The notes beneath the pieces were generated by a model, which was not told where the DNA came from, did not search any database, and saw only the letters and a program-made list of their open reading frames with translations. A stretch of 64,000 nucleotides of DNA from sequence record MN850615.1, one strand, 5' to 3'. Source of the DNA: Escherichia phage kvi. The stretch's first letter is position 1. Each line of letters begins with the position of its first letter. Both the position numbers and the translations under genes were made by a program. This document shows positions 5,341 to 9,517 of the stretch, piece by piece.

Positions 5341-5537
5341 TACTTCGCCTCATTGACGATTAACAGGATAGTGATCAGTACCGGAAACTGGATCATGACA
5401 GTACCAAAAAACCGGATAAACGCATTTTCTGACTTCCACACATGACATGCGACTAGCTGATAGACCATTGTTGCAACCAAAGCCAGAAAATACATCTCGA
5501 TTGGTGCTTCTTTGATCAATCGTACAATCTCATTCAT
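5340..5537 (-). CDS. Small hydrophobic (membrane) protein
   Basis: 65 aa, largely hydrophobic; GAGGTG SD. Confidence 0.5.
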   Translation of the reverse strand: MNEIVRLIKEAPIEMYFLALVATMVYQLVACHVWKSENAFIRFFGTVMIQFPVLITILLIVNEAK

Positions 5538-5664
5538 ACTTCACCTCATACATTCATAAACACAACAACGAATAATACAGTAACAGTTATCAACGCCATT
5601 TTCAACCCCATATTCATAATATTTTCTTCGCCTCACTATGGACAGTAGCATGTCGATGCGTGCC

Positions 5665-5692
5665 ATTATAGGCATCTAAATCGCTCTGTCAA
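5665..5692 (-). promoter_or_regulatory. Early promoter (TTGACA-16-TATAAT)
   Basis: rc of TGTCAA at 5687-5692 and ATTATA at 5665-5670. Confidence 0.5.
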
Positions 5693-5702
5693 GCACAAAA
5701 AC

Positions 5703-5727
5703 AAAAAAGCCACCCCGAAGGATGGCT
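5703..5727 (-). terminator. Terminator downstream of hoc
   Basis: AGCCACCCC..GGATGGCT hairpin followed on - strand by T-run. Confidence 0.5.
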
Positions 5728-5738
5728 GATAGATTTCA

Positions 5739-6953
5739 TTAAGCAGGATGCGTTTCACGAATGCGTAGAACTCGCTCTAACGTCTCTCGGTCCAGTTTAT
5801 GTAACTCTTTGGAATGATACATGAAACCATTGCGAGATTCCATGCAAGTGCAATCACTATATTTTTCTTCCGCTGCCGCGATTGTCTCCAGATCTTTGGC
5901 GTACTTGCTGGTTGAATAAACTTCTCGGTTACGCCACTCTAACCCAGCCTCATTGAATTTAACAATCTCGTCAAATACCCACCATCCAATGTAGATAAAT
6001 GAAGTTTTGCGCCACGGGATCGGGTGTACGTAACGAAACATTTTAACAACTTCCATTGAACATTTTCTACTTGTACTTGTTGCAACTTCTACTGTTTCAT
6101 CTTCGATCTGTTGATATAGTTTAGCAACACACCAGAATTTGGCTGTGTCATCGTAAGTAGCACTCTCTTTGAACAGATGACCGTCTGGAGTGATAGAAAA
6201 TCCTTCCAGTGCTTCGCCAACCTCACTACCGATCAGAGTCGGTGACATTTGCCCTTCGCGCTGCAAATACCAGTTATATTTGATCGTCAATTCAGGCATA
6301 CCGCTAGAATCGCCTACAATGTTCTCTGACACAACATAATTAAGTAAGATCTCATTACCTAGTGCCACGGTCTTTGATTCCACCACATCCTGATCTACGT
6401 TCATTGTTGCCAGCATGATTTTAGTCGATGCGCTAGCGGCTGAATCTTCCGACTCACCCCACACTTTTACAGTATACACGCCGTTTTTATCTGCTGTAAA
6501 TTCTTGGATCGTAATATCCTTTTTTGTGTCTATAACGTCATCGCCCTTACTCCAACTATAATGTAGTTCATAGTTGTCTGATGGAGTCTTCCCACCAGAA
6601 AATTTTACTGTTGCATGTAATTCTACGTTTGTTTGTGATGATACGTAGAAATGCTGCGGTTCGGTGATATTTACGATTAATTCAGCTTCTTCCATGAGGA
6701 AAACTTCAGATTCTACTGATGTCATCGTATCGGTATCCTGTACCGTTACTTTATAGCTACCCGCATTTTCACTTGTTGCGTCTGCTACAGTTAGCGTAGC
6801 TGTGCTATTTTCATGCGGTTGGTCGTCTTTTGTCCATGTATATGTCAAATTGCTGGGTAATGGTTCGTCACCCGCTACAGTCGCCGTTAAGGTGAAACCA
6901 TCTCCAGCAAGAAAACATCTTTTGTCAGATTTAATTGATACTGTGAAAGTCAT
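5739..6953 (-). CDS. hoc: Hoc, highly immunogenic outer capsid protein
   Basis: 404 aa; Ig-like repeats then C-terminal YVHPIPW..IGWWVFDEI..ESRNG motif as in recalled T4 Hoc. Confidence 0.85.
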   Translation of the reverse strand: MTFTVSIKSDKRCFLAGDGFTLTATVAGDEPLPSNLTYTWTKDDQPHENSTATLTVADATSENAGSYKVTVQDTDTMTSVESEVFLMEEAELIVNITEPQHFYVSSQTNVELHATVKFSGGKTPSDNYELHYSWSKGDDVIDTKKDITIQEFTADKNGVYTVKVWGESEDSAASASTKIMLATMNVDQDVVESKTVALGNEILLNYVVSENIVGDSSGMPELTIKYNWYLQREGQMSPTLIGSEVGEALEGFSITPDGHLFKESATYDDTAKFWCVAKLYQQIEDETVEVATSTSRKCSMEVVKMFRYVHPIPWRKTSFIYIGWWVFDEIVKFNEAGLEWRNREVYSTSKYAKDLETIAAAEEKYSDCTCMESRNGFMYHSKELHKLDRETLERVLRIRETHPA

Positions 6954-7122
6954 ATAAAGCCACTCCCATAGAAAATCCGAATTTAATTAATTGAAATAGT
7001 TGATTGCCATCAACCAGATAACCATTGCGAGATTCCAATACATGAGTATTAGAATAGTGATGCAACGAGGCCGAAATAGTATCGATCTCGTCTGGGTATT
7101 TGTTCTGTTTGATGTAATACAT
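6931..7122 (-). CDS. Hypothetical small protein with Hoc C-terminal-like motif
   Basis: 63 aa; YYIK..ESRNGY resembles the Hoc C-terminal region; overlaps hoc start by 23 nt. Confidence 0.3.
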   Translation of the reverse strand: MYYIKQNKYPDEIDTISASLHHYSNTHVLESRNGYLVDGNQLFQLIKFGFSMGVALYDFHSIN

Positions 7123-7218
7123 TGATTTTGTTAGACATGTAGTATCCTCTTTTTAATTGCATAACGGAACTACAATTAAAATTATAACAAATATTTCACA
7201 ACTTTTATCACCCAAAAA

Positions 7219-7944
7219 TTACTTGAGTGTGTGGAATTGGCTGTGTTTAGTCTCTCGCACCTTGACAGACCCATCGCGTTTGATATAATAGATCAGTGAC
7301 TTGAGGGTGTCGTGTACATACGCGTGCGGGAAACGCTCTGGATACTTCTTCCAATCTGGAGTATTAACGATCCAGTCGAAAATCCACCACGGGCAGGAGT
7401 AGTAACCACGACCGCCACCGATCAAGCAAATGGTCGGACGGAAGCCAGTAAGATCGCAAAATGAATCAGTGTCATGTGCTGGGGAACGATGCTCTGCTTC
7501 GTTAGAGAAAATGTTGGCTACCGGAGATTCCACTTTAACTTCCGGTGCTTCTTCAACATCTGACTTAACTTCTTCGACCACTGGTTCAACTGCCGGAGAT
7601 TCTTCTTTTGTTTCTTCAATGACGATCTCAGGTTCTTTCATTGCTTCAACCAGAGACGGATCAACTTCGTCGAATACCACTTTATCATCTGCGGTGTCTG
7701 CTGCCAGAATAAGATCGTTAATACTGGTTCCTTCTGCCGGAGTTTCTTCTTCCATTTCGGAAGCCAGTTTAGTTAATTCTGTTTCTACGAACTCGATCAT
7801 GTTCTCTAGCGAGAGCGTCTTTTTGACCTTTATATCAAATTGTTTTGCGTAGTCCGCTAATTCTGTTTTAGCGGCTTTCTGTGATTCTTTGTCGTCGGAC
7901 GCCGCAATAGCGCGGAGTTCTTCGAAATATTCTTTATCAAACAT
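7219..7944 (-). CDS. inh: Acidic protein, Inh-like by position, with Hoc-like C-terminal motif
   Basis: 241 aa; Glu-rich linker; C-terminal PWWIFDWIV..YYIKRDG resembles Hoc capsid-binding motif; sits where T4 has inh. Confidence 0.45.
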   Translation of the reverse strand: MFDKEYFEELRAIAASDDKESQKAAKTELADYAKQFDIKVKKTLSLENMIEFVETELTKLASEMEEETPAEGTSINDLILAADTADDKVVFDEVDPSLVEAMKEPEIVIEETKEESPAVEPVVEEVKSDVEEAPEVKVESPVANIFSNEAEHRSPAHDTDSFCDLTGFRPTICLIGGGRGYYSCPWWIFDWIVNTPDWKKYPERFPHAYVHDTLKSLIYYIKRDGSVKVRETKHSQFHTLK

Positions 7945-7970
7945 GTTATTCTCCTGATTGGGGGTGTTTG

Positions 7971-7978
7971 TATAAATA
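7971..7978 (+). promoter_or_regulatory. Late promoter motif TATAAATA for uvsW
   Basis: Exact TATAAATA about 37 nt upstream of ATG 8015. Confidence 0.5.
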
Positions 7979-8014
7979 TTTGTATACTGTATTTATTGAG
8001 TGAGGCTATTCGCT

Positions 8015-9517
8015 ATGCAAGATATTAAAATTCACTTTCTGAACTACTCCCATGTTCAAATTGAATGTAGCGATTCAATTTTATTAGAAATGCGAGATTA
8101 TTTTAGTTTTGAAGTCGAGGGAGCGCGGTTTCAAAAAAGATTTAAGTATGGTGGATGGGATGGGCGTATTCGTCTTTTAGATTACAACGGAAAGCTGCCA
8201 ATCGGCCTAACTAAAACCGTGGGAATCTTCGCTAAAAATATGGGCTATAGCGTATGGGTAGATCCTCGCTTATTCGAAAAAGAACAAGTTACAGAAGAAG
8301 AAATTACAAAATGGTGTAATGACTTAGAATTATATTCCGGTGCTAACAGGATCACCCCGCATTGGTATCAATCAAAGGCCGTCTTTGAAGGTATTCATCA
8401 TAAACGCCGTATGTTAGTTTTGCCTACGTCCGCTGGTAAATCTGCGATTGCTTGTATGTTGTCTCGTTGGTACTTAGAGAACTACGAAGGGAAAGTGTTG
8501 ATCATCGTTCCTACCACGTCGCTAGTGCTGCAAATGCGTGATGACTTTGTTGATTATCGCCAGTTTCCTTATGAAGCAATTCATACTATCATGAGCGGTA
8601 CTAGTAAACACGTAGGTGATCGCCTGATCGTTGTTAGTACGTGGCAATCTGCATGTAAACAACCTCGTGAGTGGTTCCAACAATTCGGGATGGTTATTGT
8701 TGACGAATGTCATAAAGCCACTGCTAAAAACCTGCTAAACATCGTTACTGATATGGATCATTGCCAATTTAAGATCGGCATGACTGGTTCCCCTCGTGAC
8801 GGGAAAGCTAACATGATGCAGTATGTCGGGCTTTTCGGTGATATTTCTAAGATCGTGAGTATTGACCGCCTGATGGAAGAAGGTCAGGTGACAAAACTGA
8901 AAATTAACTGTCTTTTCCTTCGTTATACCGATGAGGAATGTAGCGCGGTTAAGGGGCGAGAATATGCGGAAGAGATCAAGTATATTACGTCTAACCCACG
9001 ACGAAATAAGTTTGCTTGTAATTTGGCGCTAAAACTCGCTAAGAAGGGCGAAAACGTATTCCTGATGTTCCGCAATACTAAGCACGGAAAACTTATGTAT
9101 GACGCGTTACAGAAGGTACACGACAAGGTTTATTATATTGACGGTGGAGTTAAGACAGAAGAACGTGATGAATTTAAGAAAATGGCGGAGGGTGACACCG
9201 GGATCATTTGTGTTGCGTCTTATGGTGTGTTCTCTACTGGTGTTTCAATTAAGAATTTGCACCATGTTATTTTCGGTCATCCAGTGAAGGAATCAACTAT
9301 CGTTCGTCAGAGTATCGGTCGTGCATTGCGCAAACATGGTTCTAAGGATATTGCAACGGTCTGGGATCTTATAGATCATCTGGCGGTGAAGACAAAGAGC
9401 AAGAATGCTAAGAAACAGTTTAGTCACCTTAATTATGCTCTTAAACATGCCCTTGAAAGAATAAAAATTTACAACACCGACCGATTTGAATATGTCACGA
9501 AAACCATCGAGATTTAA
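8015..9517 (+). CDS. uvsW: UvsW DNA/RNA helicase
   Basis: 500 aa from ATG 8015 (track start 8000 is GTG); close match to recalled T4 UvsW (RFKYGGWDGRIRLLDY, LPTSAGKS, DECH, KHGSKDIATVWDL). Confidence 0.95.
   Translation: MQDIKIHFLNYSHVQIECSDSILLEMRDYFSFEVEGARFQKRFKYGGWDGRIRLLDYNGKLPIGLTKTVGIFAKNMGYSVWVDPRLFEKEQVTEEEITKWCNDLELYSGANRITPHWYQSKAVFEGIHHKRRMLVLPTSAGKSAIACMLSRWYLENYEGKVLIIVPTTSLVLQMRDDFVDYRQFPYEAIHTIMSGTSKHVGDRLIVVSTWQSACKQPREWFQQFGMVIVDECHKATAKNLLNIVTDMDHCQFKIGMTGSPRDGKANMMQYVGLFGDISKIVSIDRLMEEGQVTKLKINCLFLRYTDEECSAVKGREYAEEIKYITSNPRRNKFACNLALKLAKKGENVFLMFRNTKHGKLMYDALQKVHDKVYYIDGGVKTEERDEFKKMAEGDTGIICVASYGVFSTGVSIKNLHHVIFGHPVKESTIVRQSIGRALRKHGSKDIATVWDLIDHLAVKTKSKNAKKQFSHLNYALKHALERIKIYNTDRFEYVTKTIEI

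Follow-up and report, generated by a model that had tools for sequence, protein, structure and literature searches.

A homologue of the Hoc capsid-binding domain in the minor head protein Inh, and the scar of a second hoc gene, upstream of hoc in a Krischvirus genome

In phage T4, the C-terminal domain of the outer capsid protein Hoc anchors a fibre of immunoglobulin (Ig) domains at the centre of the hexamers formed by the major capsid protein (PMC10385173). Its ESRNG loop, placed on the capsomer axis, is in contact with each of the six gp23* subunits; N358 forms a bond with R344 of gp23, R357 pairs with D313, W309 and W310 contact gp23, and the site is present only once the capsid has expanded (PMC10385173). 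This domain and its motifs have been published before, and so has the finding that some phages encode two Hoc proteins (PMC10385173). Here, we examined a stretch of 64,000 nucleotides from Escherichia phage kvi (MN850615.1; hereafter the window), in which an initial annotation had reported that motifs of the Hoc C-terminus recur in the two open reading frames (ORFs) upstream of hoc, and had read these as a split or duplicated copy of that domain. We show the C-terminal domain of the minor head protein Inh, encoded by the first of these ORFs, to be a true, ancient and diverged homologue of the Hoc capsid-binding domain, present in the Inh of all T4-like phages. Comparison with relatives further indicates that the short ORF between inh and hoc is a pseudogene scar of a second, long hoc, and neither a gene nor the other half of Inh. 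Taken as a whole, what recurs is very probably a single module, the Hoc-type capsid-binding domain, which evolution has left in three states (intact in hoc, a diverged paralogue in Inh and a scar in the short ORF). Through this domain, Inh would be held at gp23 capsomers.

Read in the direction of transcription, the minus strand carries inh, a 63-codon ORF (hereafter ORF63, 6931-7122), hoc and a hairpin terminator. The product of 5739-6953 (404 residues) is certainly Hoc, the head outer capsid (decoration) protein: it matches PHROG 1149 (E 1e-81), residues 1-304 are ~98% identical to the crystal structure of RB49 Hoc (3SHS), residues 296-384 align to T4 Hoc 281-367, and a Pfam search returns Ig/PKD matches. 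Its C-terminal capsid-binding domain (residues ~306-392, 5778-6038), with the YVHP, GWW and ESRNG motifs, was delimited by alignment to T4 Hoc and with a hidden Markov model (HMM) of the domain (E 1.2e-36), its function being taken from the T4 domain (PMC10385173). The product of 7219-7944 (241 residues) is likewise certain to be a full-length orthologue of Inh, the minor head protein and inhibitor of the prohead protease gp21, as indicated by phrog_1051 (E 1e-76 over residues 1-241) and by the precomputed Pfam assignments PF26097 (Phage_Inh_N) and PF26098 (Phage_Inh_C). Its C-terminal domain (residues 161-241, 7222-7464) is ~58% identical to that of T4 Inh.

The strings singled out by the initial annotation all exist where it had placed them on the minus strand, namely YVHPIPW (residues 308-314), IGWWVFDEI (322-330) and ESRNG (372-376) in Hoc, PWWIFDWIV (185-193), YVHD (209-212) and YYIKRDG (218-224) in Inh, and an N-terminal MYYIK together with an internal ESRNGY in ORF63. 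When the Hoc C-domain HMM was run over all 1016 six-frame ORFs of the window, only three matched, i.e., Hoc (1e-36), ORF63 (5e-8) and Inh (2e-6), the next best standing at 0.39. PHROG profiles gave a hint of this, with ORF63 matching Hoc families (E 3e-6) and residues 179-231 of Inh weakly matching the C-terminal end of two Hoc families (E 0.1 and 0.66). Pairwise alignment, which had been proposed as a check, finds the relationship between Hoc and ORF63 (KYPDEI...ESRNGYLVDG against Hoc residues 349-387; 36% identity over 39 residues, BLASTP E 3e-8) and misses that between Hoc and Inh, where profiles succeed; no significant match between Inh and ORF63 was returned by BLASTP (E 7). The proposed recurrence of the domain in both upstream ORFs is thus upheld by the HMM scan, by BLASTP for ORF63, and by profiles and fold for Inh.

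The homology of Inh and Hoc is most apparent when whole families are compared. A tblastn search of the inh-hoc regions of ten T4-like phages with the last 84 residues of the window Inh retrieved Inh in each of them and, as second matches, the C-terminal domains of Hoc or Hoc-like proteins in six of the ten (Citrobacter CfP1, 6e-5; Aeromonas 50AhydR13PP, 6e-5; Acinetobacter fHyAci03, 1e-4; Klebsiella 311F, 5e-3; ER45, 7e-3; T4, 0.024); in the Aeromonas phage, the Hoc-like protein reads PYWVHDWMVANPTWRQTP against PWWIFDWIVNTPDWKKYP in Inh. Searching 1.8 billion cluster representatives with the Inh C-domain gave 87 Inh clusters, the domain always standing at the extreme C-terminus. A profile built from 86 sequences (85 of the 87 clusters plus the window) was then aligned by hhalign with a Hoc C-domain alignment of eight sequences, yielding a probability of 98.2%, an E of 6e-14 and a score of 73.3 over 63 columns; 200 column-shuffled Hoc alignments scored 11.7 ± 2.9 (maximum 21.8) and the reversed alignment 10.0. 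Furthermore, the Hoc HMM matches all 86 Inh C-domains (up to 41 bits), the Inh HMM matches all eight Hoc domains, and the top match of the Inh profile among 177,635 distinct PDB sequences is T4 Hoc (residues 300-359, E 0.01).

Structure prediction, another check that had been suggested, leads to the same domain. The last 90 residues of Inh, modelled by AlphaFold from Inh sequences only and without templates, gave a predicted local distance difference test (pLDDT) of 91.8, and a Foldseek search of the PDB with this model placed the T4 Hoc chain on top (probability 0.92, all others ≤0.10). In the BFVD search, five Inh entries came first, and the named entries at ranks 6-29 were mostly Hoc or outer capsid proteins, the majority with a probability of ~1.0, among many nameless entries and a few with other names. 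Residues 161-241 of Inh have the fold of the Hoc domain, an alpha/beta arrangement with a four-stranded sheet and helices on top that is otherwise unique in the PDB.

Several results weigh against this homology. Within the genome, BLASTP of Hoc against Inh returns nothing beyond an eight-residue match (WWVFDEIV/WWIFDWIV, E 0.055); the Inh HMM scores the window Hoc weakest of the eight Hoc domains (8.9 bits); the PDB profile match is marginal; and the Foldseek E-values are modest (0.15 against the T4 Hoc chain). The low score of the window Hoc explains the failure of BLASTP. Run with a single Inh C-domain sequence against the 1.8 billion representatives, phmmer found no Hoc at E ≤ 0.001, indicating that one sequence is insufficient to bridge the two families. 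Full-length Inh, used as the query of a large protein search, retrieved near-identical sequences from Krischviruses and nothing else, which made the result unfit for building profiles. Reliance on pairwise BLASTP alone would have led to the homology of Inh being wrongly dismissed.

A column-by-column comparison shows which parts of the Hoc domain Inh has kept. WWIFDWIV (Inh residues 186-193, 7366-7389) opens helix 1 and corresponds in the column map to W309-W310...D313...I315 of T4 Hoc; specifically, Y304 corresponds to Inh Y181 (aromatic in 80/86 Inh sequences), W309 and W310 to W186 and W187 (the W310 column holding W in 84/86 Inh and 8/8 Hoc sequences), and D313 to D190 (D/E/Q in 83/86). 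According to hhalign, the HMM alignments and the column map, the loop RETKHS (residues 230-235, 7240-7257), between beta3 and beta4, corresponds to the Q-ESRNG capsomer-centre loop of Hoc, with E355 matching E231 (E in 84/86), S356 matching T232 (T/S in the family), R357 matching K233 (R in 77/86), N358 matching H234 (N in 79/86) and G359 matching S235 (S in 80/86). RETKHS, with its family consensus R-E-T/S-R-N-S, is related and not identical to ESRNG, and is the most conserved element of Inh. The family keeps the positions of the ESRNG loop, of N358, of the R357-D313 pair and of W309/W310.

The motif pairings drawn by the initial annotation do not survive this comparison. YVHD of Inh lies in helix 3, after the WW helix, whereas YVHP of Hoc lies before it, in strand 1, and the two are not homologous; the Hoc motif (Tyr293/His295) has no counterpart in Inh, whose aligned columns hold Leu/Ile and gaps. 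YYIKRDG, paired with ESRNG, closes helix 3 and forms the turn that precedes strand 3; the counterpart of ESRNG is RETKHS.

In the AlphaFold model of the full-length protein, Inh consists of a confident N-terminal domain of three helices (residues 1-65, 7750-7944; pLDDT 91-98; helices 4-15, 19-34 and 46-65), a low-confidence acidic linker (residues 66-160, 7465-7749; pLDDT 55-76) and the C-domain. The linker columns are poorly conserved, and linker length differs across the family alignment. In its layout, Inh resembles a Hoc in miniature, with a variable functional part followed by a C-terminal anchor.

We infer that the Hoc-type C-domain would fix Inh to the capsid lattice at gp23 capsomers, and that the N-terminal module and acidic linker would carry the protease-related function. 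Tethering to the capsid lattice through the C-domain would explain why Inh is known as a minor head protein. The initial annotation had also envisaged a second capsid-decorating protein; this holds for relatives that carry a long Hoc (846-847 residues), and for Inh it may reasonably be supposed. We tentatively go one step further and raise the possibility that T4-like phages have in Inh a second and universal capsomer binder of the Hoc type, whose C-domain would dock on gp23 hexamers, possibly those of the prohead or in competition with Hoc, and would tether the helical module on its acidic linker. If so, a capsomer-binding Inh would tie the state of the lattice to the control exerted on the maturation protease.

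A serious rival, which may well be entertained alongside this proposal without being probable in itself, is that the Inh C-domain shares ancestry and fold with that of Hoc and has been re-purposed, binding, for instance, the unexpanded prohead lattice, the inner surface of the shell, the scaffolding core or the gp21 protease and not the centre of gp23 hexamers on their outer side. Four observations speak for such a change of partner, the first three also counting against binding identical to that of Hoc. The residues with which the Hoc sheet surface touches gp23 (Y293, H295, W306 and Y360) are not conserved and are replaced in Inh. The Hoc site arises only after expansion (PMC10385173), whereas Inh, as a protease inhibitor, must act earlier. 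A KEGG-based description lists Inh with the head-internal proteins. Finally, Inh is kept in phages with a decayed hoc (phiR1-RT) or without a hoc found nearby (AS-yj). The timing of the Hoc site and the head-internal, earlier-acting Inh together imply that the partner or site of the Inh C-domain may differ from that of Hoc. Moreover, the loop of the window Inh has K-H where the family has R-N (77-79/86), at the positions equivalent to R357 and the gp23-contacting N358 of Hoc, another point against binding of the Hoc kind in this phage. Against re-purposing stands the same loop: in Hoc it occupies the capsomer axis, and in Inh no part is better conserved (E in 84/86, N in 79/86 and R in 77/86 sequences), and the intradomain Arg-Asp pair and the WW turn are kept as well, a pattern hard to explain had binding been abandoned.

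Three further observations concern Inh. The capsid-targeting sequence of internal proteins, MKTYQEFIAE, ends in a gp21 cleavage site (I/L-x-E). The N-terminus of Inh (residues 1-9, 7918-7944; MIDKDYIAE-L in T4 Inh, locus L003, 3045-3725) resembles it, with Ile at position 7 in 61 and Glu at position 9 in 44 of 86 family members, and could be a targeting or cleavage signal; its position inside a confidently folded helix in the model counts against this. In the T4 transposon screen HIDEN-SEQ, insertions in inh, hoc, segE and uvsW were depleted though these genes are reported as non-essential (bioRxiv 10.1101/2025.11.20.689424), which suggests fitness or polar effects at the inh/hoc locus. In Klebsiella phage Roth16 (PQ657790.1, 110892-111113), the Inh orthologue carries the label 'anti-TA protein alt3', apparently through a mistaken transfer of annotation.

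We next turn to ORF63 (RB49p168.2; phrog_32100, E 1e-47), for which the suggestion of a decayed hoc duplication proved apt. A sensitive DNA search with 6880-7260 revealed six Krischvirus records that match only from codon 6 or 7 of ORF63 onwards. JK32, UPWr_E1 and G2248 have an intact gene of 846-847 codons between inh and hoc (L013, 1079-3619; L014, 1069-3612; L015, 1072-3612), with multiple Ig domains, labelled a second head outer capsid protein in JK32 and ending ...YVHPIPWRRTSFQYQGYWVLDEI...HTKYPDEIETIAASLHHYSNTHVLESRNGYLVDGTQLF. The window keeps both ends of this gene. At the 5' end are its Shine-Dalgarno sequence AAAGAGGA (7145-7152), which stands at equal spacing before the intact gene of all three relatives, and its start codon and first 12 codons (MSNKINVLHQTE, 7103-7138), identical in 36/36 nucleotides to the start of the UPWr_E1 gene (L014, 1069-1104). 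These are joined directly, out of frame, to its last 36 codons (KYPDEIDTISASLHHYSNTHVLESRNGYLVDGNQLF, 6994-7101), assigned by nucleotide identity to JK32 and UPWr_E1, which encode the second half of the capsid-binding domain. From the stop codon of inh to 36 nucleotides into the long hoc, identity to the relatives is 92-96%; over the last 108 nucleotides of the long hoc relic, it is 86.5% to JK32 and 77% to UPWr_E1.

The coding properties of the scar follow from this junction. The ATG of ORF63 arises in another frame of codons 5-7 of the long hoc, the first seven codons of ORF63 are an out-of-frame reading, and no Shine-Dalgarno sequence stands at a workable spacing from its start. The ribosome-binding site and start codon kept from the long hoc now serve a 29-residue nonsense peptide (7049-7138), shown by frame analysis to be out of frame, whose counterpart in GEC-3S is an annotated ORF of 54 residues. 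The relic covers only positions 43-79 of the ~82 of the Hoc-domain HMM (E 5e-8) and only Hoc residues 349-387 in BLASTP, so that beta1, beta2 and helix 1 are missing and the domain is incomplete. Alignment with JK32, UPWr_E1 and G2248 shows that the former stop codon (6991-6993) has changed from TAA to CAA, so that the relic frame now continues into hoc. Between the two hoc genes stands a hairpin, a terminator according to the G2248 annotation, that is shortened by ~15 nucleotides in the window and in GEC-3S (6954-6993 against L013, 3620-3668, and L015, 3613-3663), and transcription from the scar now probably reads straight into hoc.

The other suggestion, that of a single split copy, fails, as ORF63 derives from a different gene than Inh. 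We also considered a split gene in which ...YYIKRDG of Inh would continue into MYYIK... of ORF63, and rejected it on account of intergenic stops in all frames. MYYIKQN is an out-of-frame reading of codons 5-12 of the deleted gene and hence no ancestral protein sequence, so its likeness to YYIKRDG of Inh is coincidental.

Comparison among relatives shows the deletion history of the long hoc, as far as sequences can tell it. An earlier scar, which retains 75 more nucleotides of the 5' end, is borne by 12 records from nine phages, among them Phi1, GEC-3S, ECD7 and the Makalu phages. This segment is flanked on both sides by CAGAA, and a second deletion, between the two repeats, could turn the earlier scar into the window form. 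In this GEC-3S type, the ESRNG frame is closed by upstream stops, the annotated ORF being the out-of-frame one. In all, ~40 records have the window form, 12 the GEC-3S type and six the long hoc, and the scar-bearing genomes are 97-100% identical. The ancestor had two hoc genes, the long one (846-847 residues, many Ig domains) lying between inh and hoc; a deletion of ~2.3 kb fused the opening codons of the long hoc, out of frame, with its final 36, after which a 75-nucleotide deletion between the CAGAA repeats gave the window form, followed by point decay that included the stop codon. Most likely, the scar is not translated into anything functional.

Against this reading of ORF63 as a scar stands its persistence as an intact frame in ~40 genomes and its PHROG family, which leave some probability of expression. 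We regard it as highly improbable that ORF63 is a functional small protein, e.g., a peptide of half a domain, competing for the Hoc site or modulating it, and is maintained by selection in most Krischviruses, even though the frame is open in the ~40 window-type records, is annotated (RB49p168.2, phrog_32100) and keeps the ESRNG loop. The strong ribosome-binding site serves a different frame, the N-terminus is an out-of-frame by-product of a deletion, half of the domain is gone, and stops break the frame in the 12 GEC-3S-type records; the loss of the stop codon and of the neighbouring hairpin and the second deletion point to ongoing decay, and a search of 5.8 billion sequences with ORF63 returned only two protein clusters. 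Least tenable of all is the notion that Inh and Hoc resemble each other by chance or by convergence on a short motif (WW-x-F-D) without common ancestry, which the eight-residue BLASTP match within the genome might suggest and which is almost certainly wrong in view of a profile-profile score ~21 standard deviations above the shuffled controls, of collinear alignments of 63-76 residues, and of an independent structure prediction for which the Hoc domain is the sole strong match in PDB and BFVD.

Neither the structural work on Hoc nor the domain databases appear to note the relationship between Inh and Hoc. Inh is never mentioned in a BLAST survey of 650 Hoc homologues or in the text of the paper reporting it (PMC10385173), and in Pfam, Phage_Inh_C stands as a separate family and no domain is recorded on the Hoc C-terminus. 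The literature that we searched, which left aside older subscription journals and the text of the Pfam entry, contained no paper linking Inh with Hoc and no usable data on Inh in virions. Inh is among the least understood head proteins of T4, and its homology to Hoc provides a concrete, testable hypothesis for its recruitment to heads, since no domain other than that of Hoc is known to recognise gp23 capsomers at their centre. The Hoc anchor would thereby serve not decoration alone but, more generally, the tethering of proteins to the capsid. Since T4 display and vector engineering rely on this anchor, a second natural ligand of the same or a similar site could compete with cargo. The result on ORF63 is ordinary pseudogene biology, of practical value alone; it documents how most Krischviruses lost a second Hoc fibre in steps, and RB49p168.2/phrog_32100 should be annotated as a hoc pseudogene remnant.

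The surroundings of the locus are conserved. The window is an RB49-like Krischvirus genome of the T4 group, and 5500-8200 is 97-99.8% identical to 52 Krischvirus genomes. Just 3' of hoc, a G+C-rich hairpin followed by a T run (5700-5728, minus strand) is, from its sequence, a probable intrinsic terminator, and a terminator is annotated at the equivalent place in GEC-3S and TB34. On the plus strand, uvsW starts from 8000, divergent from inh, and the synteny of uvsW, inh and hoc is common to T4 and to Acinetobacter and Klebsiella phages. In TB34 (OX001802.1), inh and uvsW are each annotated as two split coding sequences (L001, 3215-3939 and 4010-5511), in DNA with 98% identity to the window, which has both genes intact; these splits are probably sequencing or assembly frameshifts. 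In Yersinia phage phiR1-RT (L005, 4967-5173), hoc is an annotated fragment of 56 residues among tiny ORFs and inh is intact, an independent decay of hoc with Inh retained.

Other phages offer some variations on this arrangement. A minority of Krischviruses, among them JK32, UPWr_E1 and G2248, carry the long Hoc in tandem with the usual Hoc of ~405 residues, each with a capsid-binding domain, the two domains being ~45% identical by eye; two fibres would there have to share the single site of each capsomer. ER45 has two adjacent Hoc-like genes (L008, 5306-6125), one of 177 residues with the domain at the C-terminus and one of 91 residues with the domain at the N-terminus, and CfP1 encodes a 246-residue protein with the capsid-binding domain at its N-terminus (L004, 4795-5535). 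The Hoc anchor is therefore used in both orientations.

Set against described systems, the locus combines three relationships. The first is to the Hoc C-domain (T4 Hoc 281-376; PDB 8T1X/8T9R; Fokine et al. 2023, PMC10385173), with which Inh shares the order of elements (beta2, WW helix, helix 3, beta3, loop, beta4) and the conserved positions W-W, Asp, Glu, Arg and Asn; like Hoc, Inh has the domain at the very C-terminus, after an N-terminal part that is variable and acidic. Inh differs in lacking the strand-1 Y-V-H-P and the bulky residues of the sheet surface, in having Ser for the loop Gly and Arg for Gln354, and in carrying a helical module and a disordered linker in place of Ig domains; ORF63 retains the last 36 residues of such a domain, i.e., half of it. 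The second is to the Inh family (PF26097 + PF26098; phrog_1051), to which the window Inh is structurally alike and with which it shares its position between uvsW and hoc, although its clade has K233/H234 where the family has R/N. The third is to the two-Hoc phages (Serratia Muldoon and Enterobacter PG7 in PMC10385173; Krischviruses JK32, UPWr_E1 and G2248; Klebsiella ER45), whose tandem of a long and a short hoc, each with a capsid-binding domain, the ancestor of the window shared, whereas the long copy in the window is reduced to 36 + 108 nucleotides, out of frame.

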